Notes under the pieces: model-generated | The model's database searches: none | Told to the model about the DNA's origin: nothing | What the model saw: only the letters and a program-made list of their open reading frames with translations | Part shown: piece after piece, positions 37,706 to 63,480 of the stretch | Numbering within the stretch: position 1 is the first letter of the stretch | Layout of the letters: each line of letters begins with the position of its first letter | Made by a program: the position numbers and the translations under genes | Source: a virus | Lineage: Duplodnaviria > Heunggongvirae > Uroviricota > Caudoviricetes | Virus record (IMG/VR): IMGVR_UViG_3300037587_000312 | Span: 32,552-96,551 of that record | DNA length: 64,000 nt | Strand: one strand, 5' to 3'

Positions 37706-37843
37706 ATGGCAAAATTTGAATCAGTAAACCCTGTAGTACGTAACCTGCAAAGTAAGCCTGTAGGTAATGCAGCTAAGAAAGCTGTTAAGGCTTATCGTAA
37801 CAACCGTCAGAATGCCCGTGGTCGTGGTTGGACTACTGTTTAA
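37706..37843 (+). CDS. small basic protein ending NRQNARGRGWTTV (45 aa)
   Basis: RBS gaggataaagtcATG. C-terminal motif shared with 48914..49000 and partly with 37910..38080. Confidence 0.35.
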   Translation: MAKFESVNPVVRNLQSKPVGNAAKKAVKAYRNNRQNARGRGWTTV

Positions 37844-45045: not shown

Positions 45046-45257
45046 ACACATTTAAAACTGGTGATAAGGTTGTCATTGAACGCACTGAAGGTGCTTTTGA
45101 TTACAACAAAGGAAAGACAGGGGTGGTAGTTGGTCTTGATCTCAGTTCGGATCTCGATGTGCATGTTGAACTGGATGAACCCCATCCTGATGATGCACAT
45201 GACTGGGTATTCAGCTCAGATCTTGAGTTGATTGTGGAGATGGAACCTAAACCATGA
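45042..45257 (+). CDS. hypothetical protein (KOW/SH3-like FKTGDKV N-terminus)
   Basis: ORF. Confidence 0.3.
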   Translation: MNTFKTGDKVVIERTEGAFDYNKGKTGVVVGLDLSSDLDVHVELDEPHPDDAHDWVFSSDLELIVEMEPKP

Positions 45258-45475
45258 AAATGACCCCTTGGATACGCATTATGCTTACAGCTGAGAGTAA
45301 GGTCAGTCATGTTGATGGTAGAGTATATACTGCCTACCTGACCCCTATGGAGATTATTACACTCCGGTGCCACTCAGATTACCTTTTCAAGGGGCGGGAT
45401 TGGTCACTGGCTACAGAGGATAAGGCTAACGGCATCTGTAATAGCCGTTGGATTACATTCACAAAGAGAGGATAG
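45254..45475 (+). CDS. hypothetical protein
   Basis: ORF. Confidence 0.25.
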   Translation: MKMTPWIRIMLTAESKVSHVDGRVYTAYLTPMEIITLRCHSDYLFKGRDWSLATEDKANGICNSRWITFTKRG

Positions 45476-45479
45476 AACC

Positions 45480-45785
45480 ATGAATAAGCCTTGGCCTTGG
45501 CCCCAATTCCACTGTGGCGTGAAGAAAGGAGAGATGTCTGTGATAAGTGCTGGCAAAGGAGTAGGGAGAACTATGAACAAAGCTGAACAATTGGAAAGCG
45601 TAGTGGGTGAAGATATTATGACCCTCGCAGAACGGGCTACATTCGATTCTGTGGCTACTGGTATCTGTATGAACGAAGGGTGTGACTATACCACTGAAGT
45701 CGAGCCAGACGCATCTGAGGGGCATTGTGAAGAGTGTAGAACACCTACCGTCATGTCATGTTTAGTACTATTGGGGATTATCTAA
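45480..45785 (+). CDS. zinc-ribbon protein (paralog of 46873..47190)
   Basis: GICMNEGCDYT...CEECRTPTVMSCLVLLG. Confidence 0.3.
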   Translation: MNKPWPWPQFHCGVKKGEMSVISAGKGVGRTMNKAEQLESVVGEDIMTLAERATFDSVATGICMNEGCDYTTEVEPDASEGHCEECRTPTVMSCLVLLGII

Positions 45786-45794
45786 GGGGTATTT

Positions 45795-46139
45795 ATGTTT
45801 TTCGGTAAATCAAAAAGGATTAAGGAACTAGAGGAAGAACTTAAGAGGACGGCGCTAGGAGAAGCCACCTTCCGAGATCACTGGTTGACTGCTAAATATA
45901 GATTGGATGAGGCTCATAAACTCCTTGAGAATGTAACTGATCGTATAGATGAATTAGATCTCTGGGACTACATGCAGGGGCGTGGTGAGAGACCACCCGA
46001 GAAAGAACAACCTATTTCTTTTAATGAACAAGTCTTGAAACGGTTAATACGCCTCTGTCATCCCGATAAGCACGGAGATAGTAAAATGTCTACCGATATG
46101 ACCAAATATCTACTGGATCTGCGTAAAACAGTTAAATAG
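45795..46139 (+). CDS. J-domain (DnaJ-like) protein
   Basis: LIRLCHPDKHGD contains the HPD tripeptide in J-domain context. Confidence 0.45.
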   Translation: MFFGKSKRIKELEEELKRTALGEATFRDHWLTAKYRLDEAHKLLENVTDRIDELDLWDYMQGRGERPPEKEQPISFNEQVLKRLIRLCHPDKHGDSKMSTDMTKYLLDLRKTVK

Positions 46140-46153
46140 AAAGGAGAAATCAA

Positions 46154-46609
46154 ATGAGTAAATTCAATGCAGGGGATAAAATTCGTCTTTTGGAGACCCC
46201 GATGGGTGCTATGGATATCGGAGATATTGTTACAGTGAAACGTTATGTAGCAGATGACTCTTTTCATATCAAGGAGAAGGTAGGAGATCGTGATCCGTAT
46301 ATCTTCGGAGATAAGTTCTTTGAATTAGTTGAACCAGCTACTGCTGCTCGTGATGAGATTGTAAGGATAATGCTGGCTGTTATGGGAGGAGACCGCGTAG
46401 GGTATGGGGATTTATCTTACAGCGATCTTGTGTCTCCCGACAACTCTATCAGTAGAGCTGCACACCATCTCAATGAGGCGCTTAAGTCTCTGTATGGTGG
46501 GAATGAGTATACCCTTGAATCAGAGGATATTGAAAAGGTTAAACAGGGGAAAGCAACTGCTATTCAAGAACAAATCAATGAACTGCAGGCTCAATTACTG
46601 GAACTTTAA
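46154..46609 (+). CDS. hypothetical protein (KOW/SH3-like FNAGDKI N-terminus)
   Basis: ORF. Confidence 0.3.
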   Translation: MSKFNAGDKIRLLETPMGAMDIGDIVTVKRYVADDSFHIKEKVGDRDPYIFGDKFFELVEPATAARDEIVRIMLAVMGGDRVGYGDLSYSDLVSPDNSISRAAHHLNEALKSLYGGNEYTLESEDIEKVKQGKATAIQEQINELQAQLLEL

Positions 46610-46610
46610 T

Positions 46611-46913
46611 ATGGAAACAAACAGCACAGCGCAAGAAACACTGACAATGGAGAAATTCCTTTCTATTGTTGATGAGATCAATGCGGATGACCTCAAGAGG
46701 CAACAAGCACTCCAAGAAGCTCTCAGCAGGGCAGGAATAGACGTTGATCTATCTACCCATACCGTTATGGTAGGAATGGACCTAGAGTGTCTTGCAGTCC
46801 ACCCTGAGATCACCTGTAGTAAGTTACTTGGACCTAATCAGGTAATACTCTTGCCTACCCCAAAAAGTTACTTTGATGATATATTCGATGCGGGAGGTTC
46901 TATTGGCTGGTGA
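46611..46913 (+). CDS. hypothetical protein
   Basis: ATG 46611 in the same frame as table ORF 46404..46913. Confidence 0.3.
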   Translation: METNSTAQETLTMEKFLSIVDEINADDLKRQQALQEALSRAGIDVDLSTHTVMVGMDLECLAVHPEITCSKLLGPNQVILLPTPKSYFDDIFDAGGSIGW

Positions 46914-47190
46914 ACTAGGTAAGGCACTCGAGCTGTCACATAAACTGAAAAAGACTGTCGGTGATTTAGTGGCGGCGGGGCTTATATCTGGGAAGCCTCA
47001 GGGGATCTGTTTGAATACTAACTGTGAATTCACCGTACAACTGCCTGAGAGGACAGAGACAAGGTATTGCCCCCTGTGTAAGACTGCTACAGTACAGGAT
47101 GTACTAACCTTGTGTGTGCTACCTGAGGGAGCTTCAGGGACTAGCTACGGGGAACCACCAAAGAAGAAAAACAAGTGGAGATCTAGATAG
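46873..47190 (+). CDS. zinc-ribbon protein (paralog of 45480..45785)
   Basis: GICLNTNCEFT...CPLCKTATVQDVLTLCVLPEG. Confidence 0.3.
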   Translation: MMIYSMREVLLAGELGKALELSHKLKKTVGDLVAAGLISGKPQGICLNTNCEFTVQLPERTETRYCPLCKTATVQDVLTLCVLPEGASGTSYGEPPKKKNKWRSR

Positions 47191-47277
47191 CTTTTTCGTT
47201 CTGAGATCTAGATAGGTATTTCGTTTGGGAAAAGTGAAAGCATAAAATAAGCCGTGGATCTAGATGGCTTTTTCGTT
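47181..47277. repeat. three direct copies of palindrome-containing ~20-bp repeat ATCTAGATRGSTWTTTCGTT(T) in a GATC-rich segment
   Basis: Copies at 47181-47200, 47206-47226 and 47258-47277. Each has the palindrome ATCTAGAT. Four GATC within ~110 bp. Confidence 0.5.
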
Positions 47278-47817
47278 TGAGGGATCTGTAAATTTGTACA
47301 GAATACAGTTTCCGTATATACACCCTATTCCAACCATTTCACTCGGGTATAATACGAAACTTTTTCCCCTCACAAGAAACACCTTATAAATCAATCATAT
47401 AGTCTGGCGTGATATCAAAACAGGATACATTTATTTCATGAATAGGTAATTTTACCTACAGAAAAATCTGCCGGATAATAACCCACCAAAAAGATAAGGT
47501 ACTATTCCGCTGTTTCTTGCTTATGCTTTCAAGTTATAAAAGAGCGAGCAATATATAATTTATTTACATATTGCCCGTATACAATAACAAACCAAAATTT
47601 TGACGCCCTAACGTTTTTTTATGACATTTTGATCTATACAACCAAACTTTTAGTTATATGACAATTATCAAATTATTTCGGATACAACGGCAATTTCCTA
47701 GCAGGTATCATGCCAACTCTTCGGACTATTAAAAATCCGCATGTTAAAAGTTTCAAAGTGAATCAAATTAATAAACAGCGGATTTGCTCTTTTGAGGGCA
47801 AAATTTATCGATTACAC

Positions 47818-47847
47818 GCCCTCTAATTTGCCCCGTATCAATCAATC
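47818..47847. repeat. ~30-bp direct repeat A (GCCCTCTAATTTGCCCCGTATCAATCAATC), followed by gcTATAGG at 47864-47871
   Basis: Imperfect copies at 51838-51863 and 52053-52079. Confidence 0.45.
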
Positions 47848-48177
47848 TTTTTCGGCTTGCCTTGCTATAGGTAAAATTCGAGACGCCTTAGCGGCTATTC
47901 TAGGCCATACCAGATCGATATAAGAGAATCCTAATATACACCTAAAATGAAATAAATTTGTACTATTCGAAAAAGTGTGTTATCACGCGCACGCGGTCTA
48001 TCTATAGTTAAAAATCACCCTCTAAAATTAATTTCCCCTATATGGTTGCAATGCTCTGAAATAGGACTAGTATTCATTTCAACAACGGGGCGAGGCTTAA
48101 GCCTAATCCCCTAGGGATTAACCCTAAAACGCTTTTTAACAAAATGACTTTTAACACTTTGTTGATTTAACATCATA

Positions 48178-48200
48178 GCCGCTAGAAATAGCGGTTATTT
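48178..48200 (+). promoter_or_regulatory. AATAGCGG-family hairpin 1 (ccgcta-gaaa-tagcgg + TTATTT), terminator-like
   Basis: One of three related hairpins confined to the 48-51 kb cassette. Confidence 0.35.
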
Positions 48201-48384
48201 GTAAACCAACCAAGCGAGAGTAAAACAATGTCTATATACAGGCGTCGTCAGGCAAAGATAAACCGACACAATATGATCGTTTTAGCATGGTCCCTAGTGT
48301 TGTTACCACTTGCCGCTTTTCTTTCTTATGCGGTTGGTCTATCACTAGTTAGCTAACAACAACCCACAATAAATAGGCTACACA

Positions 48385-48699
48385 ATGGCACAATATAAAA
48401 AGATTGTTGATATATGGCCAATTACAACCGCTATCATGGCGGGTAAAATCAAACTGCAATCAGGTCAACCAATCAGGTGCGGTTGTGATAAAAACGGCTG
48501 TATCAGTGTTTTCGACTATGCCACGCCGACATATATCCGCGCTTTTCATGGCGGTAATTACAGGCAAGCGAGGGCAAAGTATCTCAGCGTTAAACGAACC
48601 GAGCGTATCAATACAGCCGCAGTTGCTGGCAAGTTTCCGAAACACTTAATACATGCTGCGCATATGCATAGTATGCGAATGTTTCAACCGATCAACTAA
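48385..48699 (+). CDS. hypothetical protein (cassette gene 1)
   Basis: ORF after a 1.2-kb ORF-free leader. Confidence 0.3.
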   Translation: MAQYKKIVDIWPITTAIMAGKIKLQSGQPIRCGCDKNGCISVFDYATPTYIRAFHGGNYRQARAKYLSVKRTERINTAAVAGKFPKHLIHAAHMHSMRMFQPIN

Positions 48700-48759
48700 A
48701 GGGCGGCTTTAGCCGTCGATATAATCGACCCCGTAAACGGGGCTAAACAGGCCGACATA

Positions 48760-48894
48760 ATGAAGCGTTTTATTGATACCAAAATAAAAGAGTATTTAAA
48801 AAAGCGTTATCATCAGCAAATTAATAAGGGATTGATAAGCGAGCAAGTTTACAGTGCTTTAATTAATCGCCTTCAATATGTCCGTTTCATCTAA
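48760..48894 (+). CDS. hypothetical small protein (44 aa)
   Basis: Short ORF below cutoff. Confidence 0.2.
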   Translation: MKRFIDTKIKEYLKKRYHQQINKGLISEQVYSALINRLQYVRFI

Positions 48895-48913
48895 TCAAAA
48901 AGGTAAACAAATC

Positions 48914-49000
48914 ATGAATAAGCCAAACAAAGCCGAACGCAAAGTAATTAAACAAAACCGCGACAACCGTAAAAATGCACGGGGTCGTCAGTGGGTTTAA
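48914..49000 (+). CDS. small basic protein ending NRKNARGRQWV (28 aa)
   Basis: C-terminal motif shared with 37706..37843. Confidence 0.3.
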   Translation: MNKPNKAERKVIKQNRDNRKNARGRQWV

Positions 49001-49010
49001 AGGTTTAAAT

Positions 49011-49037
49011 AATAGCGGTTTGAATAAAGCCGCTATT
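49011..49037 (+). promoter_or_regulatory. AATAGCGG-family hairpin 2 (aatagcgg...ccgctatt)
   Basis: 8-10 bp inverted repeat immediately after the small ORF. Confidence 0.35.
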
Positions 49038-49078
49038 GATAAACTAAATAACCAAAATCATTAATAACAGGTGATACC

Positions 49079-49468
49079 ATGTCAAAAGCAATTGAATTAA
49101 CCTTTACGCAATGCAAACAGCTAATCGAAAAAGATATTGATTTGCGTGATTTTATCGAGTCAATCGAAAATCAACCCACCTTTATTAAATCGATGGGGGC
49201 GATTGATTCAATCAGCGAATTACAGGCCATTCAAGAGGGCGGCTGTGCAAGCGGGGCGTATATGCCAGCCGTTACTTACCATACTGCTAATAAGTGCATG
49301 ACGGATCATAGCGACGAGGTAGAAACCTTACTAGTACAGCACGGCGTCGAAGCCTTTACGTTTAACCCTGAAACAGATTCATGGTACTGCTTTGCTTCGA
49401 AGCTTGTATCCGCTGCCGTCGAATTGTGGGTCAATCAATTCGATCTAGATGGGGTCGATTGGGACTAA
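49079..49468 (+). CDS. hypothetical acidic protein (cassette gene)
   Basis: RBS aggtgataccATG. Confidence 0.35.
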   Translation: MSKAIELTFTQCKQLIEKDIDLRDFIESIENQPTFIKSMGAIDSISELQAIQEGGCASGAYMPAVTYHTANKCMTDHSDEVETLLVQHGVEAFTFNPETDSWYCFASKLVSAAVELWVNQFDLDGVDWD

Positions 49469-49551
49469 TGAAAAAGATCATCAAAGGGGCGTCAATTTTC
49501 GCCCTCTCTTTTATCTGGTTTTGTTCAATAATTTATTTTGGAGTTTAGATC

Positions 49552-49821
49552 ATGCGCGTACTAGGAATTCATTTAACAGCTGAGCAACAAAAACAGGTTT
49601 TATCCTCTTATACCTATCGTTACACTGGGGACAATAAGCCGAGCTGGGCAAATGCTGAATGGAAAAATGGCCAGCCATACCCGTTACAGTTTAAAGATGA
49701 TCAGGATTGGTTGGCCAATACGGATTTTAATGTTACTCAAAAGGGTAAATTATCCCTTACTGATACTGACTGCTATAGCCGTCAAACATGGCCAAACAAC
49801 CCTGAATTAAGAAAAGGTTAA
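49552..49821 (+). CDS. hypothetical protein
   Basis: RBS ggagtttagatcATG. Confidence 0.3.
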   Translation: MRVLGIHLTAEQQKQVLSSYTYRYTGDNKPSWANAEWKNGQPYPLQFKDDQDWLANTDFNVTQKGKLSLTDTDCYSRQTWPNNPELRKG

Positions 49822-49825
49822 AATC

Positions 49826-50032
49826 ATGCGAATATCTAAATTAACCGCTAAGCAATTAAACGAACTGCAAAACGAAAAATATATTGATATTGAATATAAA
49901 GGAAACGAATTCCGAATAGTAAAGCGAGGCGATATACTAACACCGTTTAAAGTTTACGATTTTAGCAATGACGGCGTTTATTCGGCGGCTAATTTATCAG
50001 ACATTAAATTTTACATTTGTGATCTGATTTAA
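49826..50032 (+). CDS. hypothetical protein
   Basis: ORF. Confidence 0.3.
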   Translation: MRISKLTAKQLNELQNEKYIDIEYKGNEFRIVKRGDILTPFKVYDFSNDGVYSAANLSDIKFYICDLI

Positions 50033-50035
50033 AGT

Positions 50036-50074
50036 TTTATTAATAGCGGTTTTGATTAAAGCCGTTATTAATAA
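50036..50074 (+). promoter_or_regulatory. AATAGCGG-family hairpin 3 (13-bp stem ttattaatagcgg / ccgttattaataa)
   Basis: Long inverted repeat between cassette ORFs. Confidence 0.35.
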
Positions 50075-50105
50075 AACAAACCAAAACAGAATAGAGAATC
50101 GAATT

Positions 50106-50798
50106 ATGATCATTGCAACCATTAAGCAAGCCAAGCTAGTAAGCGGCGTCGTTACAGCTGGGAATTCAAAGGTGCATGGTTCGACTTTTTCAGTTGACCC
50201 TACGCAATGCAAAGTCGGTAGCAAGCTAGCAAAGATTAAAGGGAGTACATGCTCAAAATGTTACGCGATTAAATTGAGCCGGGTTTATCCTACTGCGTTA
50301 AAAAGCTGGTCTGATAACCTAGCTATTTTTAATACTCACAAGAAAGTCGATACCCTAGACCATTGGGCAAAAGGTATAGCAAAACAAATAACCCAACATA
50401 GCCAACGCAAAGCCAAAAAGGGTATCGATGGGGCGCGGTATCATAGATGGTTTGCAGCTGGGGATTTATCTTGTATTGATATGCTCAGAGCTATTGTAAA
50501 GGTTGCAGAGCAGACGCCAGACATTAACCATTGGTTACCAACGCGTGAAGCTGGAATCATTCGCCAGTATAAAAACATGCTTGGTACTATCCCTAACAAT
50601 CTGATTATTCGTGTTAGTAGCGCAATGGTAAATGCATCGCCTAACAAGCAATTCAAAAATACCTCAACCGTTCATGGTAAAACAGATAACAAAATAGGCG
50701 CGTTTAGTTGCCCCGCATATGATAACGAAGGGTCTTGTGGTTCCTGTATTAGTTGCTGGGATAAGAAAGTATCAAACGTATCGTATAAACAGCATTAA
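50106..50798 (+). CDS. Cys-rich hypothetical protein (TCSKC, SCPAY, SCGSCISCW motifs)
   Basis: Start moved to ATG 50106 because the upstream part overlaps hairpin 3. Confidence 0.35.
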   Translation: MIIATIKQAKLVSGVVTAGNSKVHGSTFSVDPTQCKVGSKLAKIKGSTCSKCYAIKLSRVYPTALKSWSDNLAIFNTHKKVDTLDHWAKGIAKQITQHSQRKAKKGIDGARYHRWFAAGDLSCIDMLRAIVKVAEQTPDINHWLPTREAGIIRQYKNMLGTIPNNLIIRVSSAMVNASPNKQFKNTSTVHGKTDNKIGAFSCPAYDNEGSCGSCISCWDKKVSNVSYKQH

Positions 50799-50864
50799 GC
50801 TTTAAAAGTATATAGGGCCATTACAGGCGGCCTTATAGCCGCCACAACCAAAAGGATTAAAACC

Positions 50865-51179
50865 ATGCTGTCATATGATGAAGTTTTGAAGCGAGCCATA
50901 ACGTGGTACGTCTTGGCAACATACAACGAAGGCCATCCAAACAACTCAACCGCCTACTCTAAAGCTCATGCTTATATTGATGTTTTGAATCTGCCGTATC
51001 ATAAGTGCTGCGGCATTAAATGCGCCGAAAATTTAAAGGAATATGCAAAGGGTTTAGCTTATGGCTATAAAACTTTTGAGATAATACACGACCACAACCC
51101 ACCAATTATGATAAACGAATATATAAGAGAAAGATTAGATCTGAATTTTTGGGATAACCTAACAAACAAAAAGGTTTAA
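50865..51179 (+). CDS. hypothetical protein
   Basis: RBS aaaggattaaaaccATG. Confidence 0.3.
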   Translation: MLSYDEVLKRAITWYVLATYNEGHPNNSTAYSKAHAYIDVLNLPYHKCCGIKCAENLKEYAKGLAYGYKTFEIIHDHNPPIMINEYIRERLDLNFWDNLTNKKV

Positions 51180-51183
51180 AACT

Positions 51184-51534
51184 ATGTCACATTTAACCGC
51201 TCAATCAAGCTCTGAATTTTCTTTTAAATATATCTGCGCACGTTTAAACAAAAACAACCCTGCTGCTAAGAAAACAATTGAACGGGCTATTAGAAACGCT
51301 AACGACAGCGAAGGTAATTACAGCTGCTCATATAACCAATACGTTGACAAGGAGACAAAGAACGCGGCTTGGTATTCAGTAGCAGACGGCTCGTTTTTCG
51401 GAATTATTGAAGATATGGAAAAAGGTAATTGTAATTCAATGTTTACACCACAACAAATAAACGGGTTTATTAGAGCTTATAACAATGCTGCCGCTATGGC
51501 GTATGGTATGATTAAGGCGAGGGGATTAAAATAA
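51184..51534 (+). CDS. hypothetical protein
   Basis: ORF. Confidence 0.3.
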   Translation: MSHLTAQSSSEFSFKYICARLNKNNPAAKKTIERAIRNANDSEGNYSCSYNQYVDKETKNAAWYSVADGSFFGIIEDMEKGNCNSMFTPQQINGFIRAYNNAAAMAYGMIKARGLK

Positions 51535-51776
51535 TGATTAAACCAACTGTTGAAATTAAATGCACTATCACTTTTTCAGATCTTATAGATTATCTAATGG
51601 CAGCGACTGGCAAAGATTACAGCACAATCGAAAACAGTTTACCGGATTGGATTTATGAGGATAATTATCACCTATCCGCCGATGGTGTTGGCAACTCTGC
51701 TGGCGAATGGTTTAAACCTTTGGGGGAATGGCTTACTAATAATAATATTGAACGTATTTATATGTACCACGATTAA
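51534..51776 (+). CDS. hypothetical protein
   Basis: Start overlaps the previous stop (TAATG). Confidence 0.3.
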   Translation: MIKPTVEIKCTITFSDLIDYLMAATGKDYSTIENSLPDWIYEDNYHLSADGVGNSAGEWFKPLGEWLTNNNIERIYMYHD

Positions 51777-51800
51777 TTAACAATCAATACCAGATATAAA

Positions 51801-51838
51801 GGCTAATCCTAACGGGTTAGCCTTTTTGTCGTTTAGGG
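51801..51838 (+). terminator. rho-independent terminator closing the cassette
   Basis: ggctaatcc-taac-gggttagcc followed by TTTTTGTCGTTT. Confidence 0.55.
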
Positions 51839-51870
51839 CCGTCTAGTTTGCCCCATATCAATCGTATAGG
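51838..51870. repeat. direct repeat B (GCCGTCTAGTTTGCCCCATATCAATCG) fused to cgTATAGGG
   Basis: About 25 of 30 positions match repeat A. Confidence 0.45.
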
Positions 51871-52052
51871 GCCATACCTTGCAAACCATACCACTCAACA
51901 ACGGCATAGCCTTAGCTGTACGCATACAGCCGTATAGAATACGGCGCTATCCCCAGAATCAACCCTTTACAGTATGGACAGCATGAAATGATCATTTATA
52001 TGGTTTCTATTGTCTTCAATGGTCTTTTAAGAGGCTCTATGCACGGGCTAAC

Positions 52053-52152
52053 GCCCTCTAATTTGCCGTGTAGCGGCTGTTTAGCTATAGGGCAATGCAT
52101 TCGTATAGGTACAATTGAACAGGGCTTAGAGGGCGTTATATGGCGTTATAGG
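52053..52152. repeat. direct repeat C (GCCCTCTAATTTGCCGTGTAGCGGCTG) plus three closely spaced (g)cgtTATAGG(g/t) motifs at 52086, 52104, 52147
   Basis: Recurrent TATAGG core with conserved 5' flank. Confidence 0.4.
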
Positions 52153-53390
52153 GTTATTTGTGGCAAGGACATTACATGGTGCATTCTGGCAAGGGTACAT
52201 TGTGGCGGGGCTATATATGGGGTTATATATGGCTTAGATGCTAAACAATCAGAAATTACCACTTCCTTCCTTTAATCGATGTTATTTGATCAATGTTACC
52301 CACAATGGGTGAATGAGTATAATTGGCATAACATATGCATAGTAATCAATCGAATGGATGAATCAGATAATAATGTAATTGTCAACGAATAATAATCCTC
52401 CTAGCAATAGGCATGCCAACATGATCAATCAGGCTGATTGATCTAATGCTACGCATAACCTGTATTATGTTAAATGAGTATTATTGAATGTAATGATTGG
52501 CAAGGGTATCGGGCAAAAGTGATCCATTGATTTAGTTATATCTGAGGGGTGTTCATATGCTAAATCGGTCTTGTGGATATTTTCAAATTCTGGTAAAATA
52601 GAGAGTCGGGCACCAGTTCGTGTCAAGCACCAAAACTGTGGAATTAGGGGAAGCACCCAAATTGTGAAATAGTGGTATAGGCTACTGATCGAGGATATTT
52701 CCTTATCTGAATACTCGGAACTTTATGCCCCGTAAAAGGGGTAGCCGTAGGCTAACAGCTGCGCTGTCATTTCAATGCTGAAGTCCCTCCCAATTTACAA
52801 AATTATGATATTCCACCACATGATCCTGCCTGAGTATCTCCCCAACGTATACTTCCTATAGATACAGATATTTCCCCCATCACAACACCAACAAAGTACC
52901 TCCTAACAAAATCCCACATTAGTTAGGGTAAACATACATCCACACAAATATACACACATCAACACAAAGACACATATCCCTATATTTAATGGATTCGGGG
53001 AGGGTACTATGATCTACCACATCTACGGTGTAACTTTAAACCTAGACCCTATAAACACTCTAAGGAAACAATAACCCCCAACTGTACACTAATAATGAAC
53101 AATAGTAACAAAAGGTATTTGAATCAAAGTCTTACCTAAGAAGAGTTAAAACTTAAGAGTGTTTATAACTAATAGGAATACCTATTCAAAGCTGACGCTT
53201 TAGCCAAGGTCAAGAGCAAAGATCCTAGTCTGCTGACATACGGATCTCCTAGGGTATTTCTTTCTCTCTTTTAATGTTCTTTTAATCTACAGAGTGTAGA
53301 CCTATTGATCTGACGATCAGAAAGGGTATACTATTGTTGGGGAGTGTAACCACACAGATACATTCATGGCAATATTAGAAGTTGCTAATA

Positions 53391-53930
53391 CTAGATATTC
53401 TCGTATAGGGATCTTCCTTCATAAGTATACTCAAGAAGGGCTTTGTAGATAGAGGGTTTCAGTTGGTCCTTATATTCCTCTGCAAGCTTTTTAATATTAG
53501 CTTCTTTCCTGTCTCCATATACTTTAATTTTGTGTGGGTTATCTGTTGTTACTTTTTTATATTTCCCCCTGTAGAGCAGATGATTGGCAAGTGTCGCATT
53601 TATAATCTGTGGAAGAAAGCAACAAGTCTCAGGTGAATATACTTTTACCTTCATACCTGAGAGGAGATCCTTATCTATAGACCAACCCTCTACATAGTTC
53701 TCTAGATACCATCTCCTGAAGTTTTCATACACTAACCACTCATCACAGACAGTTACCTCTAGATATGTAGGGTTCAACAGTGAAAATCTTCTGTCCGTTG
53801 CCCTCTTCATGACACTAGCATACCTACTTTTTATTCTCTTCTCTTCTTTACTCATAACCATATATATTCTCCTCACGTAAAGAAAGGAGCCTATGGCTCC
53901 TTGTATGTGTTCATTCTGGGTAAGGTACAA
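53391..53930 (-). CDS. AP2-domain homing-endonuclease-like protein, paralog 1
   Basis: N-terminal Y..W..M..R and CDEW...F..W motifs, then an AP2-like region. Paralogous to 53911..54690 and 59899..60504. Confidence 0.45.
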   Translation of the reverse strand: MYLTQNEHIQGAIGSFLYVRRIYMVMSKEEKRIKSRYASVMKRATDRRFSLLNPTYLEVTVCDEWLVYENFRRWYLENYVEGWSIDKDLLSGMKVKVYSPETCCFLPQIINATLANHLLYRGKYKKVTTDNPHKIKVYGDRKEANIKKLAEEYKDQLKPSIYKALLEYTYEGRSLYENI

Positions 53931-54690
53931 TCTCCCAGTTCATTAATGTGTTGTAGGCCTGTTCAGAGATATCACCCTGATCGAAGTACTTCTGAGCTAC
54001 CTCTTTGATATACTTTTCCTTGGCTACTTTGTATACTTGGAAAGCTAGTTCAGGTGTATTGAAGTACCCTAGATATTCCGAGCCAGCCCCCCTGTTCAAA
54101 CTAGCTTGGAACTTCTTCTCGTGTTTGGACACACCGATAGGATATTTCCCTCTTTCAGCTCGTCTATTTGTTAAAAGAATATTTATCTCTTTTGGAACAA
54201 ATTCACAGGTCTCAGGTGAATATAATAGGCTCCCCCTAATCCTTAGGTCTTTATCAATATGAAAACCATACCTTGAATTCTCTCCATACCACCTAGCAAA
54301 GTTCTGGAAATTATGCCATTCATTGCAGACTACCACTCCCCTACCACCATACCAGCGATATCCCTTATTTCCCCTGTTATAGCACCTCCTGAATATATTA
54401 TACCACGCATCATATGCAGGGGTATTCTTACCTAGAATTTTTGCGCTATACCGTCCCTCACCTAGGTAGCCCACACCACAAGTGGAAGGTACATACGGGT
54501 CTCTGACCGCCCCACTACGGAGCTGCCCAGCTGTCACTGTGGTTGAATAGCTGGTACAAGAGAATATAACCATTATCTCACCACACCCTTTATAGGAAGT
54601 TACGATACACTTTCCACAATGAACTGTTTCAAATTCATCCCCTACACCAATACCCGGTTTACTCATTGTTCTCCTCACTACCGCCCTCAA
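53911..54690 (-). CDS. AP2-domain homing-endonuclease-like protein, paralog 2
   Basis: TPAYDAWYNIFRRCY...YGGRGVVVCNEWHNFQNFARW, AP2-like GVSKHEKKFQASL...YLGYFNTPELAFQVY. Confidence 0.5.
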   Translation of the reverse strand: MRAVVRRTMSKPGIGVGDEFETVHCGKCIVTSYKGCGEIMVIFSCTSYSTTVTAGQLRSGAVRDPYVPSTCGVGYLGEGRYSAKILGKNTPAYDAWYNIFRRCYNRGNKGYRWYGGRGVVVCNEWHNFQNFARWYGENSRYGFHIDKDLRIRGSLLYSPETCEFVPKEINILLTNRRAERGKYPIGVSKHEKKFQASLNRGAGSEYLGYFNTPELAFQVYKVAKEKYIKEVAQKYFDQGDISEQAYNTLMNWEIVPYPE

Positions 54691-54819
54691 GTGTATATAT
54701 TGCCTCTTTAGACCACTTAAGGATAGTCACAATGTGCTGACGCTCAAGGGTGTCCTCCTGAGTGTTATCCAGCAGCCACTGTATATCCTCATCAACCATC
54801 AAAGCGTATGTGTGTTTTG

Positions 54820-55092
54820 TTAGTTTACCGCCCACTGATATCTCCTGTATATTTCTCTGTAGTGTTTGTTTCGGAAAAGAACAGGCTGACCCTTATTCTT
54901 CTTCCTTAGGTGTGTCTGTTTCTGAATGAGTTTGTTCATAAGAATCTTATGGCGAGTAGCCCTTTCATGTGCAGCTAAACCCACTTCCGGTTTGGGGGAT
55001 TCCTCTTCATCCTCATCGTATAATTCTTCGAAGGCGAATGGGGATTCGAATAGATCATCTTCTGGATTTAGATCACTTTGCTCAGTTCCCAT
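54820..55092 (-). CDS. hypothetical acidic/basic protein
   Basis: ORF. Confidence 0.3.
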   Translation of the reverse strand: MGTEQSDLNPEDDLFESPFAFEELYDEDEEESPKPEVGLAAHERATRHKILMNKLIQKQTHLRKKNKGQPVLFRNKHYREIYRRYQWAVN

Positions 55093-55289
55093 TTATCCCC
55101 CTTATGATCTACAAGGATTCTTCTCCCGCTATCACTAACGAACATAACACCCTCAAGGAATTCCCCGATCTTCCAGTCATGGGCTAGGAAGTCAGCTACA
55201 TAGTACCTGCCCTTCTCATTGAAGGGTCGCACTAAATGCTCATAGGCTTCTTTATCTAATTGTACCATATGGTCCCCTCCGTTTCCCAA
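55068..55289 (-). CDS. hypothetical protein
   Basis: ORF. Confidence 0.3.
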   Translation of the reverse strand: MGNGGDHMVQLDKEAYEHLVRPFNEKGRYYVADFLAHDWKIGEFLEGVMFVSDSGRRILVDHKGDKWELSKVI

Positions 55290-55524
55290 GATATTCTTTT
55301 CCTTTCCGCTCTAAGTTTCTATGGCAGATACGCCACTTGAGTTGGGGCATTACCTCTTTATGACCTAACGCAACACACAGTTTAGCTTTCAGAGCGAATT
55401 CCTGACCACACTCACAGAAATAATACCTGTTACCGAAGTCAGCTACGTGGTACTTAGAATAGATGTGGCATTTCTGAGCACCCAATACCCACGAGCAGAG
55501 TGCATAGGGTCTAGGTCTACTCAT
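55252..55524 (-). CDS. zinc-finger protein
   Basis: CECGQEF...C...H...H pattern. Confidence 0.3.
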   Translation of the reverse strand: MSRPRPYALCSWVLGAQKCHIYSKYHVADFGNRYYFCECGQEFALKAKLCVALGHKEVMPQLKWRICHRNLERKGKEYLGKRRGPYGTIR

Positions 55525-55724
55525 AATCTCTCCTTTGTATCTACTTTATCCAACAAGTAAAGGAAACCTGCAGTTATCAATGCTGCTGGCCATAAACCAA
55601 TATGCAAGAGATCTACCCGATCAAGATTAAAATTGGGTTTACCTTTCCATGGGAGTTGTGCCAATACAGTACAAGCAATAGCACCTGCCAAATAAATATA
55701 TGATAGAATTATAAATGTGTTCAT
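55521..55724 (-). CDS. small 2-TM membrane protein
   Basis: Hydrophobic ORF. Confidence 0.3.
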   Translation of the reverse strand: MNTFIILSYIYLAGAIACTVLAQLPWKGKPNFNLDRVDLLHIGLWPAALITAGFLYLLDKVDTKERL

Positions 55725-55828
55725 GTATCTCCCCTAATCATGATAAAAGTCAACCGTATGTTCATTCCTAGTTACATAGATTATGATGAGGAATGGACCA
55801 AGGAAGACTAGTGTTTGGATTAGTCCCA

Positions 55829-56239
55829 TCATACCAGTTCCCAATCCCCCTCTGCATTAGTAAACCTAATCTCAATCTCTACAATATCCTCCACCATATA
55901 GAATGTTGGTTGTACATTATGTTCTGTTGCCCAATCATCAATAACTTTATGGACACGGTTTATAAGATCATTCTTACATTTATTATCTAATCCACTGAGC
56001 CAATCATCAGCAAACTCTCCACACTCATCATACGCATTCTCTGCCAGAGTGTCAATCAAATAATTAGGTGAATAATCAGAAGCCACGCTCTCTATGACCT
56101 TACCTTCATAGATTGTGACGATATCCCCTACTGCCAACGGATCTGGCCAATGAACATCAGCCATATCTATTGCCGCTTCACTGATACTATCATAGTTGAA
56201 CATTTCTTGATCGACACTATAAACTCGTCTACTCATCAT
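55829..56239 (-). CDS. hypothetical acidic protein
   Basis: ORF. Confidence 0.3.
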   Translation of the reverse strand: MMSRRVYSVDQEMFNYDSISEAAIDMADVHWPDPLAVGDIVTIYEGKVIESVASDYSPNYLIDTLAENAYDECGEFADDWLSGLDNKCKNDLINRVHKVIDDWATEHNVQPTFYMVEDIVEIEIRFTNAEGDWELV

Positions 56240-56672
56240 TATCTCCTATATTCTGGTAAATAAAAATAGCTTCTTTACTGTCGAGGTATACGGGATCACC
56301 AAGCCTTCCACACGCATGTAGTCTCCCCGCGACATCGAGGAGGTCGTCAGTTAGTTTGACGGCATTGTGGTGTGGGTGACGACTATCATATTTTGTAGTC
56401 CCGTGAAAAGTTAAAACTCTATCAATCTTTGATTGCCAGAATGAACCCCCATCTAATGAATCAAACTTCTGTTTCTGAGTAAATTGCTTATGACCTGTCA
56501 TTTTCTCGGAGCTAATCCATTTAGAGAACCAACTATGATTATCAAAGACGTTCTCCGCTAGGAGGTAAGCCTCTTTTTGTAAGAAGTCTGCCTCGGCTAC
56601 AGAAACCTTTGAAGCTTCCGTTAATTGGGTTGCTAGGGATAAAGCCCTTTGTGCCGATATCTGTGTTTTCAT
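56229..56672 (-). CDS. hypothetical protein
   Basis: ORF. Confidence 0.3.
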   Translation of the reverse strand: MKTQISAQRALSLATQLTEASKVSVAEADFLQKEAYLLAENVFDNHSWFSKWISSEKMTGHKQFTQKQKFDSLDGGSFWQSKIDRVLTFHGTTKYDSRHPHHNAVKLTDDLLDVAGRLHACGRLGDPVYLDSKEAIFIYQNIGDNDE

Positions 56673-56905
56673 TAAAAGACCCTCTCTACCATTTGGTACA
56701 TTCGTAAATTACCATCCGGTGTTGTTTCAAAAGACTTTGCTATCCTTTCATTCATATCCACCTTCCGATGCGTCATATCATAGACCGTTAGCTTCTCTGG
56801 TGTATTAATAAGTTCATAGAAAGCCCCTTGCCTGAAATCCATATATTCATCATTCTCCCTTGAGCAGGCTTCAGCACACCGTATGTAATCAGTATTAAGT
56901 TTCAT
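56672..56905 (-). CDS. hypothetical protein
   Basis: ORF. Confidence 0.3.
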   Translation of the reverse strand: MKLNTDYIRCAEACSRENDEYMDFRQGAFYELINTPEKLTVYDMTHRKVDMNERIAKSFETTPDGNLRMYQMVERVF

Positions 56906-57224
56906 CTCTAGCCACCACCTTCTGACCTGTTTTCATGAGTGCCTCTTGTAATACAGCAGAGCCTACGTTTGTAGATAGCCACTGGAACGTGGTGAAGGCT
57001 GCTTTAAGTGCTACTGGATCATTACCTACAATATTGGTCAGGTTCGATCCACACCCTTCGTGGAAGTCTTTTATGACATCACTATAGATACGATCCCGCT
57101 CACCCTGTTTGTCATCAATAAAGGCTCTATTGATAAAATGATCACCTCGGTTCTGGAAATACTCCAGCGACAGTAGTTGATCCTCAGGTATATGCTTAAG
57201 ACTCAATGATAATTGTTTGTTCAT
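56895..57224 (-). CDS. hypothetical protein
   Basis: ORF. Confidence 0.3.
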   Translation of the reverse strand: MNKQLSLSLKHIPEDQLLSLEYFQNRGDHFINRAFIDDKQGERDRIYSDVIKDFHEGCGSNLTNIVGNDPVALKAAFTTFQWLSTNVGSAVLQEALMKTGQKVVARDET

Positions 57225-57402
57225 TATGTTTCTTTATCCTTTTATAAGGTTGAGGGCGATAGTCTTCACATCCAGCTCCAGATGGACAACTCCAATCATG
57301 GCTCGGGTGTTGGCAAAGACCTCCTATACGGCACCCACCGCACATTCTTATTCTAACCCAATACTGACAACCACCACAAGTCTTTTTACGCGTCTTTGAC
57401 AT
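57196..57402 (-). CDS. Cys-rich small protein (CGGCxYW...CGGCRIGGLC...C)
   Basis: Eight or more cysteines in 68 aa. Confidence 0.3.
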   Translation of the reverse strand: MSKTRKKTCGGCQYWVRIRMCGGCRIGGLCQHPSHDWSCPSGAGCEDYRPQPYKRIKKHNEQTIIIES

Positions 57403-57532
57403 CTACAAAACCTATTTCCTATTTATATGAATCTTGGGTGTTTCAAGCCACCCACACCTATCACAAGATAATAAGAGTTGTGTGGCACCAGTTTGTGTTT
57501 TAGTATTCTTGTTCTTACACCGTGGGCACATA

Positions 57533-57718
57533 TTATACCCAATCCACTGTTACTTGCCAATCACAACCTTCATCAGCTGATCCCTTCTTATCTACCTCAA
57601 GAGTCTGTAAACGATCACGCTCCTTGAGTGCCTTCTTAGGACAAGAGAAAGTAGTCTTCTTTGTTTTAGCTGTGACGTTACCATACATGTAGTATGTTCC
57701 TTGCAAAATGTATTCCAT
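57533..57718 (-). CDS. hypothetical small protein
   Basis: ORF. Confidence 0.25.
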   Translation of the reverse strand: MEYILQGTYYMYGNVTAKTKKTTFSCPKKALKERDRLQTLEVDKKGSADEGCDWQVTVDWV

Positions 57719-57719
57719 A

Positions 57720-58424
57720 TCAAATCTCCAATAAAGTTAAATCGTTATTAAAAACACCACCTGTATCGATGTAATAGACATTACCAAATTGTTGTATGCC
57801 TTGTACAGGTGTATGGCCAACAAAGACCTTATCGATATCCTTGACAGGTCTGCTGTTCTTAGCTGCAATACGATCTCTGCCCCAGAGAGTCTTCATACGA
57901 CAATCCCTGATAAGAGCCTCATTCCAGAATTCAGGAGCATCCCCATGTAAGACACCTATAGTCTCACCTGAGTTAGTGTCAATCTGGAAAGCCAGAGGCA
58001 TGACACTCTGACAAGCCATAAGAGTATCTACGAAGGTCTGATCCACATGGTTCATCTCTATAAAATCTAAAGCCCATGTGCCACCGTTCTGCATCCAACA
58101 CTGGAATTCACCCATGGAACTCTCTAAGACGCCATTGAACATCATTTCACAGTGATTACCCAGCACTGAGTGGAACCAATTTTCAAACACAAGACTTAGA
58201 CACTTAAGTGATTCCGGTCCTCTGTCAACGAGATCACCTACAGCAAAGATTCGGTCTTTAGACTTATCGAAGTCCACTTTCTTCATCTCTGCCACAAGGA
58301 GATCATAGCATCCATGGAGGTCTCCCAGAACGAAGTCCCTCCCATGGTAGTTCTCTCTAAATTTCTGTATTACCATCATAGATTCCATATAACCAACATA
58401 ACCGCTATAGCAAAGGAGGCACAC
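57720..58424 (-). CDS. Ser/Thr protein phosphatase (lambda-PPase / calcineurin-like metallophosphoesterase)
   Basis: Motifs GDLHGC, GDLVDRGP, GNHE. Confidence 0.6.
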   Translation of the reverse strand: MCLLCYSGYVGYMESMMVIQKFRENYHGRDFVLGDLHGCYDLLVAEMKKVDFDKSKDRIFAVGDLVDRGPESLKCLSLVFENWFHSVLGNHCEMMFNGVLESSMGEFQCWMQNGGTWALDFIEMNHVDQTFVDTLMACQSVMPLAFQIDTNSGETIGVLHGDAPEFWNEALIRDCRMKTLWGRDRIAAKNSRPVKDIDKVFVGHTPVQGIQQFGNVYYIDTGGVFNNDLTLLEI

Positions 58425-58570
58425 ATAGTCACAACAAGCCCACCGAAAAACATATCAATTTTCTGATATGTGGATTTTTCCACACTCTTCTCAACCTCTT
58501 TAGCAAAGACTGCTACAAAGAGAAGTAGGATTAGGAGGCTCCCGCTCAACTTAAAAAGAAATTCTATCAT
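58376..58570 (-). CDS. small 2-TM membrane protein
   Basis: Hydrophobic ORF. Confidence 0.3.
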   Translation of the reverse strand: MIEFLFKLSGSLLILLLFVAVFAKEVEKSVEKSTYQKIDMFFGGLVVTMCASFAIAVMLVIWNL

Positions 58571-59883
58571 ACATTAAATACCTCCTTAATTCTCTCTAGT
58601 GTGTCAGCGGTATCCTTATCATTACAACGCCAATCTTCATGACGAGGTAAGAACAAACTCCACAGTGGGTTAGTCTTACTTGGTGGCAATGGTCCATTAC
58701 TCTTAACACCCATCACCTTGTACTGATAATAGTCCCAATTCTCGAAGATTTCAAGTCTTAGTTTATCAGAGAATCCAGTACAGGCTACTCGTAATAGTCC
58801 ATCCTCACTCTCACAGAGGATACTACCAAAGGTGTTCTCATTCTTCTTACCTTCACCACCGGGAATTAGTGCGATAGCACGAAGCTCTACAACCTCCTCA
58901 ACTTTATTCTTGATCTGACCTTTGGATGTACCATCCTTATAGGGGGCATCCATATCCTTATCGATAGTTCCTTCACCACCAGCGGCAACAATCTCGCGAT
59001 AGTAGTCATCAGCTTCTTTCCGGCTGTTCACAATCCGGTATGGGGTAAGGAAAAGACTCTCGAGGTTAGCCCTCATCAGTTGATCTTCGAGTGCGAATAG
59101 ACGAGTAGCTCGGGGGACAGCCCACAGCCCAACCCAGTAATCTTTCTCTGGGATAATCTCCCACAACTGTACACGGAGTTTCTGGTTGGATTCAAGGTCA
59201 CGTTTCCCGTGAAGGAAACAAGCATTGATGATACCATTACCGATCTCGCGAGGAAGTACTTTACCATCCTCTTCAATTAGCATCTCTCCTTCATAAACCG
59301 CTTGCTTAATCTCACTGAAGTCAGAAATAACGTAGTCAGGGATATTAATCAAGGGTGTTCCATTACGGGTCTTAGCCTCAATACCTTTTTCCCGATTAAA
59401 CCAACGAGAGAATATTCCATCACCTTTCAACTCACTGATTGCAGGGAATGGGACTTCACCTTTCGAACTGCAACGCATATAAGGATAATATGGGAACAGA
59501 TCTGGCCATACACTGAGGATACTCTTAGCACTAATGCCAGCCTTTACATCACGCTTGATCACGTAGGTCAGGCACTCTCTGTCATCCTGTGATAAGGTTT
59601 GGAATAAGTCCTTCACAGCAGATTTAGCCGCTTTACCTGTAACCTTACGCTTACTTAGTTGGTCAACCATGACACTGAGTGCGTATTCCAAAGTATTAAG
59701 ACCTTTCACTGGTCCTAGATTCTTTGGAATAACTGTTGTGTAGTAATTAAAACTCTTGTCATATGCAAGCTTTAGAACAGCCTTCAATTCTGTATTGAAT
59801 TCATTATCTTTCAGGATCTGACGCTTGTCATTCTTACCAGCTGTAGCTCTGATCTCTTTAATTACATCTGCTGTATGCCTCAT
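58567..59883 (-). CDS. ATP-dependent nucleic-acid ligase (KxDG nucleotidyltransferase motif; DNA vs RNA ligase unresolved)
   Basis: SELKGDGIF motif I-like lysine-nucleotidyl site; 438 aa. Lacks the Arg at +2 usually seen in DNA ligases. Confidence 0.5.
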   Translation of the reverse strand: MRHTADVIKEIRATAGKNDKRQILKDNEFNTELKAVLKLAYDKSFNYYTTVIPKNLGPVKGLNTLEYALSVMVDQLSKRKVTGKAAKSAVKDLFQTLSQDDRECLTYVIKRDVKAGISAKSILSVWPDLFPYYPYMRCSSKGEVPFPAISELKGDGIFSRWFNREKGIEAKTRNGTPLINIPDYVISDFSEIKQAVYEGEMLIEEDGKVLPREIGNGIINACFLHGKRDLESNQKLRVQLWEIIPEKDYWVGLWAVPRATRLFALEDQLMRANLESLFLTPYRIVNSRKEADDYYREIVAAGGEGTIDKDMDAPYKDGTSKGQIKNKVEEVVELRAIALIPGGEGKKNENTFGSILCESEDGLLRVACTGFSDKLRLEIFENWDYYQYKVMGVKSNGPLPPSKTNPLWSLFLPRHEDWRCNDKDTADTLERIKEVFNV

Positions 59884-59898
59884 AGAATATCCTCTCTA

Positions 59899-60504
59899 TT
59901 ATTCGGGGAAGGGGGTAATTACCCAATCCATCAGTGTATTGTAGATCTCCTCAGAGATCTCATTATTACCAAAACATTCTTTGGCAACAACTTTAATATA
60001 GTCTTCCTTCTGTCTTTTGTAAGCAGAAAAAGCCGCTTCAGAAGTCTCAAAGGAACCTATATACTTCCTCTTCCTACCTAGATTAATATCTGTGTGAAAT
60101 CTCCCTCTTCTTTCATAAACACCCACGGGGAGGCTCCCTCTCGTTTTGTTATTACTTATTAAAAGTTTATTCACCTTTTGAGGAATAAACTCACAAGTCT
60201 CCTCAGAGTACACCCTTGATCTTGGTTTACGAAGATCTTTATCCATAACAAACCCCAACCTGTAATTTTCTTCATACCATTTTGCATAGGTCTGGAAGTT
60301 ATGCCACCCACCACATACGGTAATCCCTCTCCCACCGTACCGTGGGTATCTCCAATCAGCTACATTGTAGCACCGCCCAATCATGTTTTGCCAAGCCCCA
60401 TATGATTTGGTCTTTTTTCCAGAGCTAAAAGATTTGTATTGGCCTACACCTAAGTACCCCACCCCGTGCATAGTTGGCGTGAAACGGTTTTTCCTAGGTT
60501 TCAT
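59899..60504 (-). CDS. AP2-domain homing-endonuclease-like protein, paralog 3
   Basis: KSYGAWQNMIGRCY...YGGRGITVCGGWHNFQTYAKW, AP2-like GVYERRGRFHTDINLGRKRKYIGSFETSEAAFSAY. Confidence 0.5.
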   Translation of the reverse strand: MKPRKNRFTPTMHGVGYLGVGQYKSFSSGKKTKSYGAWQNMIGRCYNVADWRYPRYGGRGITVCGGWHNFQTYAKWYEENYRLGFVMDKDLRKPRSRVYSEETCEFIPQKVNKLLISNNKTRGSLPVGVYERRGRFHTDINLGRKRKYIGSFETSEAAFSAYKRQKEDYIKVVAKECFGNNEISEEIYNTLMDWVITPFPE

Positions 60505-60745
60505 TTTGTCTCCCTAAAGCTGTTTCCGCTATATCCACTATCCTGTAAACACTATTAGAGGCAATTATAGCCTCCAGTGCCATTTCGTATCTGATCATTT
60601 TATCTCTATCAGATAAGGTATTTCCCATTTTAGAAATCTCTGCTTTACATTTACTGCACTTACCACATGCATTCCCCAGATTGAAACTACCTTTACAAGT
60701 GGCTTCAGAGTTTTTGGGTATCAAGTGATCTGCTGATGTTGTCAT
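60494..60745 (-). CDS. zinc-ribbon protein
   Basis: CKGSFNLGNACGKCSKC. Confidence 0.3.
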   Translation of the reverse strand: MTTSADHLIPKNSEATCKGSFNLGNACGKCSKCKAEISKMGNTLSDRDKMIRYEMALEAIIASNSVYRIVDIAETALGRQNET

Positions 60746-61050: not shown

Positions 61051-61059
61051 TTATTCCTC

Positions 61060-61919: not shown

Positions 61920-61922
61920 AGT

Positions 61923-63476: not shown

Positions 63477-63480
63477 TATG

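Follow-up and report, generated by a model that had tools for sequence, protein, structure and literature searches.

We describe a segment of about 6 kb (positions 47181-53390) within a 64,000-nucleotide stretch, hereafter the window, of the IMG/VR virus record IMGVR_UViG_3300037587_000312 (Caudoviricetes). The window is part of a ~122-kb marine myophage genome (JGI metagenome contig of 121,737 nt); the other 58 kb of this genome lie outside it, and genome-wide counts given below refer to the window only. It encodes tape measure and baseplate proteins, a family-A DNA polymerase, a primase-helicase, a ligase, HNH endonucleases, and four tRNAs. The distant kin of the phage are the Vibrio phages 277E43-1, PWH3a-P1, and ICP1. 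Its DNA polymerase is 57% identical to that of 277E43-1 and 53% identical to that of PWH3a-P1, and the gene order of the tail and replication modules is common to the window and 277E43-1. PWH3a-P1 has been placed among the relatives of ICP1 in a review (PMC9040626). The segment lies where a plus-strand early block and a minus-strand block converge. It holds an operon of small genes, two long gene-free stretches and three copies of a repeat, here named R, and its composition strongly indicates that the larger part was imported from a different genome.

The middle of the segment is occupied by a one-directional operon on the plus strand (48228-51776). The initial annotation counted eight genes between the gene-free stretches, and eight are indeed called (48385-48699, 49079-49468, 49552-49821, 49826-50032, 50106-50798, 50865-51179, 51184-51534, and 51534-51776). 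The count is nonetheless incomplete, four smaller open reading frames (ORFs) on the same strand being plausible as well. They encode a membrane-like peptide of 42 amino acids (48228-48356), a peptide of 44 (48760-48894), a basic peptide of 28 (48914-49000), and a second membrane-like peptide of 26 (49468-49548). A strong intrinsic terminator with a 12-bp stem (51798-51825, plus strand; local folding z -3.9) ends the operon, which thus does have a terminator of its own, as had been noted. No model of a recombinase, a replication initiator or a defence system matched any cassette protein. PADLOC and NCBIfam gave no match for ten of these proteins (those of the eight called genes and of the 42- and 44-residue ORFs), and no homologue of a cassette gene was found in the distant relative 277E43-1.

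Four plus-strand hairpins punctuate the operon. H1 (48178-48201), upstream of the first small ORF, has an 8-bp stem and a GAAA loop and is followed by AACCAACCAA. H2 (49011-49037) pairs AATAGCGG with CCGCTATT, H3 (50034-50077) has 20-nt arms that are 90% complementary, and H4 (50826-50843), seen by inspection of the sequence, pairs GGCGGC with GCCGCC ahead of ACAACCAAAAGG. After each of them comes an AACCAA-type motif, close upstream of the next start codon. The word AATAGCGG is found six times in the window, against 0.84 expected, and four of these occurrences lie in the cassette hairpins; the other two, at 6829 and 15135, mean that it is not confined to the cassette, as first proposed.

The basic 28-residue peptide and a native basic peptide of 45 residues (37706-37843) have in common a C-terminal NRxNARGRxW (55% identity over 22 residues, E 6e-8). 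By this similarity, the former is a paralogue of the native gene product, and the two form an unannotated micro-protein family.

To the left of the operon, the initial annotation pointed to a stretch devoid of ORFs of 60 amino acids or more, and this holds: 47191-48384 spans 1194 nt, the maximum elsewhere in the window being 312 nt. The same was claimed for the stretch on the right, from 51777 to 53390, which does contain two ORFs above that length (51988-52275, plus strand, 95 amino acids; 52465-52656, minus strand, 63 amino acids), neither of them supported. At the end of the native plus-strand block, three direct repeats of 21-25 nt with the consensus (A)GATCTAGAT(A/G)G(C/G)T(T/A)TTTCGTT are present as reported (47178-47277, plus strand). 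The stop codon of the final native plus-strand gene overlaps the first of them. The third folds into a hairpin (47249-47270) that T-rich tracts border on either side and that, judged from its sequence, is likely a bidirectional terminator. The composition of this repeat region is backbone-like.

The composition of the remainder carries the main result. The backbone of the window (1-47190 and 53391-64000) is strongly CpG-depleted, with relative abundances of 0.57 for CpG and 0.83 for GpC; avoidance of restriction, methylation or a mutational bias would be candidate causes. The corresponding values are 1.21 and 1.54 in the cassette, 1.18 and 1.28 in the left gene-free stretch, and 0.58 and 1.03 in the right one. 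In 277E43-1, PWH3a-P1, and ICP1, CpG ranges from 0.67 to 0.75 and GpC from 0.81 to 0.85; the dinucleotide signature of the backbone is 0.08-0.10 away from these three genomes, and the foreign island delimited below resembles none of them. The dinucleotide distance between cassette and backbone reaches 0.227, whereas 255 backbone stretches of equal size give a mean of 0.044 and a maximum of 0.091. No other 1-kb stretch in the window has an island-like signature. Codon use agrees: all eight cassette genes fall below the phage mean (z -0.4 to -3.6), and the GC3 skew is negative in seven of the eight, against +0.15 for the rest. Hence, k-mer composition and codon usage both deviate from the rest of the window, and the suggestion of a horizontally acquired moron, one of several options raised in the initial annotation, is borne out.

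Change points in a second-order Markov log-likelihood ratio delimit a compositionally foreign island at 47385-52520 (CpG 1.18, GpC 1.54). The left change point falls at ~47385-47450. On the right, the edge is a plateau between 52100 and 52520, and the native signature is clear from 52600 onward. Because of this dinucleotide signature, with which codon usage agrees, we conclude with strong support that ~4.7-5.1 kb (from about 47.4 to 52.1-52.5 kb) are imported DNA of different genome origin. Besides the operon with its terminator and the three R copies, the imported DNA takes in almost the whole left gene-free stretch. The two ORF-free flanks are therefore not equivalent, the left one being imported and most of the right one native.

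Within the left flank, the island begins with a non-coding leader (47385-48227) that has no ORF of 60 amino acids or more and whose distance is 0.104 to the cassette vs. 0.226 to the backbone. On the minus strand, the leader carries an intrinsic-terminator-like hairpin (47545-47577) of 14 pairs with the tail CTCTTTTATA (local folding z ~-4), and no minus-strand ORF lies upstream of it. The arms of an imperfect inverted repeat of ~80 nt (47686-47764 and 48116-48196; 67% over 82 nt, E 1e-5) enclose the first R copy, the right arm overlapping hairpin H1. Folded as the minus strand, 47540-48200 scores z -2.6 vs. shuffles. These features may mark a non-coding RNA that was imported with the island.

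The R repeats were first described as imperfect 30-bp direct repeats at 47818, 51838, and 52053. All three were found, though as parts of a longer unit: a 26-nt direct repeat links 47818 and 51838 (three mismatches; none expected by chance), a degenerate third copy lies at 52053, and alignment and a profile search extend the true repeat unit to ~85 nt, in three plus-strand copies. R1 (47815-47894) has the core GCCCTCTAATTTGCC ... TATAGG ... GCCTTAGCGG. R2 (51835-51918) is a shortened copy directly after the terminator tail (TTGTCGTTTA), and R3 (52050-52132), at the right edge of the island, is closed by a perfect 13-bp inverted repeat (TAACGCCCTCTAA / TTAGAGGGCGTTA). Upstream of the copies there is the strong terminator for R2, a weak 8-bp stem with a large loop for R1, and no hairpin for R3. 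The three copies have no common fold. The profile search detected no copy beyond these three, either in the window or in the loci fetched, and pattern scans of IMG/VR (with a loose pattern) and of the JGI metagenomes returned only chance matches in unrelated coding DNA. Since R1 lies ~430 nt inside the island and all copies are within foreign DNA, the R repeats are not insertion-junction repeats, and the notion of a cassette bounded by repeats fails, the island beginning ~430 nt to the left of R1.

In a scan for the sigma-70 consensus, none of the three R copies passes; the best is R3 (TTGCCG-17-TATAGG), which has a G at the last -10 position. Readings of short motifs as sigma-54 or IHF sites were rejected on inspection for wrong spacing. 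An integron attC site is an imperfect palindrome with RYYYAAC ... GTTRRRY ends, located beside an integrase or in an array. R3 was tried as such a site and rejected: its ends (GGCTAAC ... GTTATAT) are unfit, R1 and R2 have no palindrome, and there is no integrase. Finally, words of the ATCAATC type are found repeatedly both in the R cores and in the gene-free stretch on the right.

Recognisable families are limited to two cassette genes. The first (50106-50798, plus strand) encodes a GP88-family protein (PF17338) with at least 195 homologues in marine metagenomes and prophages. Its best phage matches are roseophage proteins (45-48% identity), and it is absent from PWH3a-P1, 277E43-1, and ICP1, all of them distant relatives. 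Seven cysteines are invariant, C35, C49, and C52 (CX13CX2C) and C202, C211, C214, and C217 (CX8CX2CX2C), which suggests one or two iron-sulfur clusters. The structure predicted for GP88, a confident model, contains a partial (beta/alpha) barrel like that of radical SAM enzymes. The CX3CX2C motif that binds the radical SAM cluster is replaced by CX13CX2C. One variant with a long-spaced cysteine motif is known, in QueE. GP88 is thus, on the basis of this model, probably an iron-sulfur enzyme with a radical-SAM-like fold and a candidate member of the superfamily. A sequence search of the PDB returned nothing for GP88, and a literature search on GP88 and PF17338 found only unrelated "GP88" papers.

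The second recognisable product is an all-helical protein of 129 amino acids (49079-49468, plus strand; phrog_12388, weak similarity to DUF7222). It has 274 homologues, and its family is widespread in marine phage contigs. Homologues of GP88 and of the 129-residue protein occur in many unrelated marine phage contigs, with varying neighbours and order. Only one contig, L009, has both genes, in reversed order. GP88 loci in GTDB bacterial genomes show neither cassette synteny nor R. In six roseophage records (H26-H31), GP88 is the first or last gene, and several metagenomic contigs carry it no more than a few kb from one end; GP88 may typically be located near genome termini or in hypervariable regions. 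An unrelated GP88-bearing contig, L011, has a gene-free stretch of 1.5 kb (7303-8838) at a convergent junction, with at least eight CTTCTAA(G/A) repeats and several TGTCAAG repeats, iteron-like in appearance. An iteron link between the motif CCCTCTAA of the window and the CTTCTAAG repeats of L011 was considered and is not supported.

We favor, with a probability of roughly 0.6, the view that the segment is an island of accessory genes, a moron, gained by horizontal transfer and located at the convergent junction of the plus-strand early block and the minus-strand block. In the scenario that we propose, promoter use, expression timing, the role of R and the donor are inferred. Recombination would have brought the island in from an unrelated phage-like genome without CpG depletion, to a quiet convergent junction beside, possibly within, a native gene-free spacer of ~1 kb next to the HNH gene. 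Rightward, self-contained transcription would start from signals in the leader and end at 51798-51825, the transcript being processed or stabilized at the four hairpins. The accessory products would be GP88, as an iron-sulfur enzyme with a radical-SAM fold, the conserved helical protein, and tiny membrane and basic peptides. The R units would most likely be repeated terminator-proximal modules of the island, acting as regulatory sites and as substrates for homologous recombination, like the PeSL cassettes discussed below.

Several observations weigh against this view. Promoter-like sites in the region are at chance level (20 found, 22.7 expected), and the promoter candidate at 47980-48008 (TTATCA-17-TATAGT) is no better than chance matches. 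A good sigma-70 -10 element is missing from the R units, in which TTTGCC and TATAGG stand at differing distances (~12, 17, and 33 nt), so that the regulatory role of R is a guess. The minus-strand terminator and the inverted repeat of the leader hint at a non-coding RNA that a moron model does not explain. No close relative of the phage was found among GenBank phages, in IMG/VR or in the protein collection, so that the collections searched offer neither an empty site nor an alternative cassette. Scans of IMG/VR for the left-flank protein, GP88, and the ligase yielded no relatives, and the only match of the left-flank protein among 5.8 billion proteins is itself. The DNA of the segment and its flank had no match in near or distant searches of GenBank phages and plasmids, which offer no candidate donor.

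Morons are reportedly autonomous extra transcription units, described in lambdoid phages by Hendrix and colleagues. The island resembles them as a set of extra genes at the boundary of conserved modules, with its own terminator, a distinct composition, and accessory content. It differs from them in that it has ~12 ORFs where a moron typically has a single gene, in its 0.8-kb non-coding leader and internal repeats, in a promoter that is only a candidate, and in its host, a virulent myophage rather than a lambdoid prophage. In the PeSL cassettes, which occupy the hyperplastic regions of T4-type phages (PMC2839356, PMC4122927), short repeated modules by stem-loop terminators flank small unknown genes, as here most clearly at R2. 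R is also in direct orientation, so that recombination could excise or swap genes. However, the strong sigma-70-like early promoter within the PeSL repeat has no equivalent in R, PeSLs are numerous per genome and mark indels between close relatives, the 64 kb have R at a single place in three copies, and the phage is not T4-type. The "ORFanage" of cyanophage S-PM2 (PMC4503421) is likewise a block of small unknown genes, which this large lytic marine myophage can acquire or shed as a whole; spontaneous deletion was demonstrated there, whereas the island is known from sequence alone.

A tentative alternative, compatible with a moron cassette, holds that the gene-free stretches are non-coding RNA genes (the native spacer and perhaps the leader), as in ICP1, and that the island landed in or beside one of them. 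The native part of the right flank is a CpG-depleted, ORF-free spacer (52600-53390) that adjoins the 3' end of the minus-strand HNH genes. By position, its counterparts are spacers of ~1.1 kb in 277E43-1, 1469 nt in PWH3a-P1, and 1011 nt in ICP1. In 277E43-1 and PWH3a-P1, as in the window, the spacer lies at the 3' end of an HNH gene and closes the minus-strand block. In ICP1, the 1011-nt "orf-less space" between ORF139 and ORF140 has a sigma-70 promoter and a terminator on the minus strand. It yields the most abundant transcript of that phage, ~800 nt long and non-coding (PMC7567579), and the locus persists in related phages with highly divergent sequence (PMC9040626). Because the native remnants (~52.6-53.39 and 47.19-47.385 kb) add up to ~1.07 kb, the size of such a gene-free space, the island may have split a spacer locus of the ICP1 type. 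The orphan minus-strand terminator at 47545-47577 and the minus-strand fold of 47540-48200 also favor non-coding RNA.

The likeness to the ICP1 space (PMC7567579, PMC9040626), however, concerns the native right spacer, not the cassette, and amounts to a gene-free space of ~1 kb that ends a minus-strand block. The spacers of the window, 277E43-1, and PWH3a-P1 have no sequence similarity, and the proteins flanking them, including those of the ICP1 lysis cluster, are not homologous. Beyond the spacer there are no lysis genes here, and no minus-strand genes. Candidate transcripts of the right spacer fold like shuffled sequences (z -0.25 and -0.96), the ICP1 RNA itself scoring z -1.5, and Rfam returned nothing credible at gathering and E-value thresholds. 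The window spacer is thus devoid of sequence, structural and flanking-gene homology to the ICP1 locus.

Several motifs in and around these spacers were noted in passing. On the plus strand, a C/A-rich, G-poor tract of ~200 nt (52790-52990; GC skew to -0.5), preceded by a G-rich region (52000-52700), could be of the Rho-utilisation type or a mark of minus-strand transcription. A near-perfect 21-nt palindrome, TGATCAATCAGGCTGATTGATC, with two GATC sites, lies at 52423-52443. By eye, the spacers of PWH3a-P1 and 277E43-1 (L010 12744-12770 and L002 26988-27012) have in common ATTAAAGCGG(C)AGCTTTGAA and several mini-hairpins of the GCG(A/G)AGC type, BLAST finding no significant similarity; a conserved core of a non-coding RNA of this lineage is a possible reading. 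The neighbouring HNH homing-endonuclease ORFs (53391-54690, minus strand) overlap at the end of the native minus-strand block. Their products, of 179 and 259 amino acids, match the same HNH homing-endonuclease PHROGs and may be tandem copies or a single gene split by a frameshift. Farther away, in the plus-strand early block, a tRNA cluster (36277-37163) comprises Ser-GCT, Leu-TAA, Met-CAT, and Cys-GCA, two of the four reaching the Rfam gathering score.

A bolder combination of these ideas, which we consider doubtful, is that the landing site was not random, the island having split a lineage-conserved non-coding RNA locus of ~1 kb in ICP1-like phages, and that the three R units and the four hairpins form a new, non-sigma-70, mobile terminator and regulatory cassette shuttling gene blocks between unrelated marine phages. 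It would then be an analogue of PeSL outside the T4 group, or an integrase-less hitch-hiker using phage recombination.

It is unlikely that the region is a replication origin or pac site, with repeats serving as iterons or terminase-binding sites beside AT-rich DNA. Such a function would suit a long non-coding region between convergent blocks, its short repeats (R1-R3, three copies of TGGCAAGG, two of GGCTATATATGG, and the 21-nt palindrome), its AT-rich patches (47400-47700 and 52200-52500), and DnaA-box-like 9-mers at 52296 and 52572. However, the R repeats are in foreign DNA and not in the native spacer, and the window has no terminase gene close by. The number of DnaA-like boxes in the window as a whole barely exceeds expectation (31 vs. 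21.8; 31 is reached in 5 of 100 shuffles), and they do not cluster in the segment, which has just the two. The initial annotation had taken clustered Dam sites as a mark of an origin or pac. This sign is not specific, since similar GATC clusters occur at four other places: at least four GATC sites within 110 nt are found at five places of the window (six overlapping stretches), where GATC occurs 294 times vs. 275 expected. The P1 pac site has two groups of Dam-methylated TGATCA/G hexamers that flank the cleavage site, whereas the four GATC sites here (47180-47283) belong to the three GATCTAGAT direct repeats. In ICP1, the rolling-circle origin and pac are near the genome end, and the orf-less space is neither (PMC7145576, PMC9040626). 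A second four-GATC cluster (53221-53315), with the small palindromes TGATCTGACGATCA and TCTACAGAGTGTAGA, lies just downstream of the HNH stop codon, and this cluster and the one at 47180-47283 mirror each other at the outer edges of the segment.

More improbable still is an integrase-less mobile element with R-like ends, moved by site-specific or repeat-mediated recombination. PeSL mini-circles of T4-type phages are a precedent (PMC2839356), and direct R copies near both sides of the operon, R3 with its 13-bp inverted repeat at the right compositional edge, and, at the left change point, a weak half-site similar to R (CCTTATAAATCAATCATATAG) would fit. That half-site is nevertheless within the range of chance (shuffle fraction 0.02-0.04), and the position of R1 well inside the island is at odds with a terminal role. 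Furthermore, the island has no recombinase gene, searches of IMG/VR, the JGI metagenomes and GTDB genomes yielded no other copy of R or of the island, and the cassette genes are not syntenic elsewhere.

An assembly chimera of reads from two genomes is very improbable, despite the abrupt change of composition at both edges and the recovery of the phage from a single sample. An independent Logan assembly of run SRR12613195 contains a 9625-nt contig that spans both island junctions and is base-identical to the JGI assembly over 45253-54877; two false joins restoring the phage backbone would be needed, and the 28-residue island peptide is paralogous to a native phage gene product.

TATAGG resembles the initiation core of T7 promoters. 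The five TATAGG sites reported initially (47864, 51862, 52084, 52101, and 52144) are there, and the motif is locally clustered (nine sites in the 1.6 kb of 51777-53409 vs. 1.05 expected, P ~1.6e-6), but their reading as promoters of a T7-class phage RNA polymerase is already largely refuted: the motif is not enriched window-wide (41 found vs. 41.6 expected) or associated with gene starts, the conserved 17-23-bp context is missing (the sites agree upstream in ~3 bases at most and have only (c/g)(g/c)TATAGG(g/t) in common), native promoters are near-consensus sigma-70 (for example, TTGACA-N17-TACAAT at 37852), no ORF of the window resembles a single-subunit RNA polymerase, as the initial annotation had itself remarked, and ICP1 is reported to have no gene for one (PMC9040626).

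The island is best read as an unremarkable gene acquisition by a phage rather than as an array of promoters or a packaging site. Current views are not overturned, and the value of the finding lies mainly in annotation and in targets for experiments. In the segment, a large virulent marine phage offers a clean and sharply bounded case of recently imported genes, the island standing in stark contrast to the CpG-depleted backbone and relatives. The different origins of its two ORF-free flanks shift where regulatory or RNA functions should be sought. A persistent gene-free spacer, the non-coding RNA locus of ICP1, is extended by position to an uncultured relative. Finally, the widespread and uncharacterised GP88 family gains, from a structure model, a probable iron-sulfur, radical-SAM-like fold.

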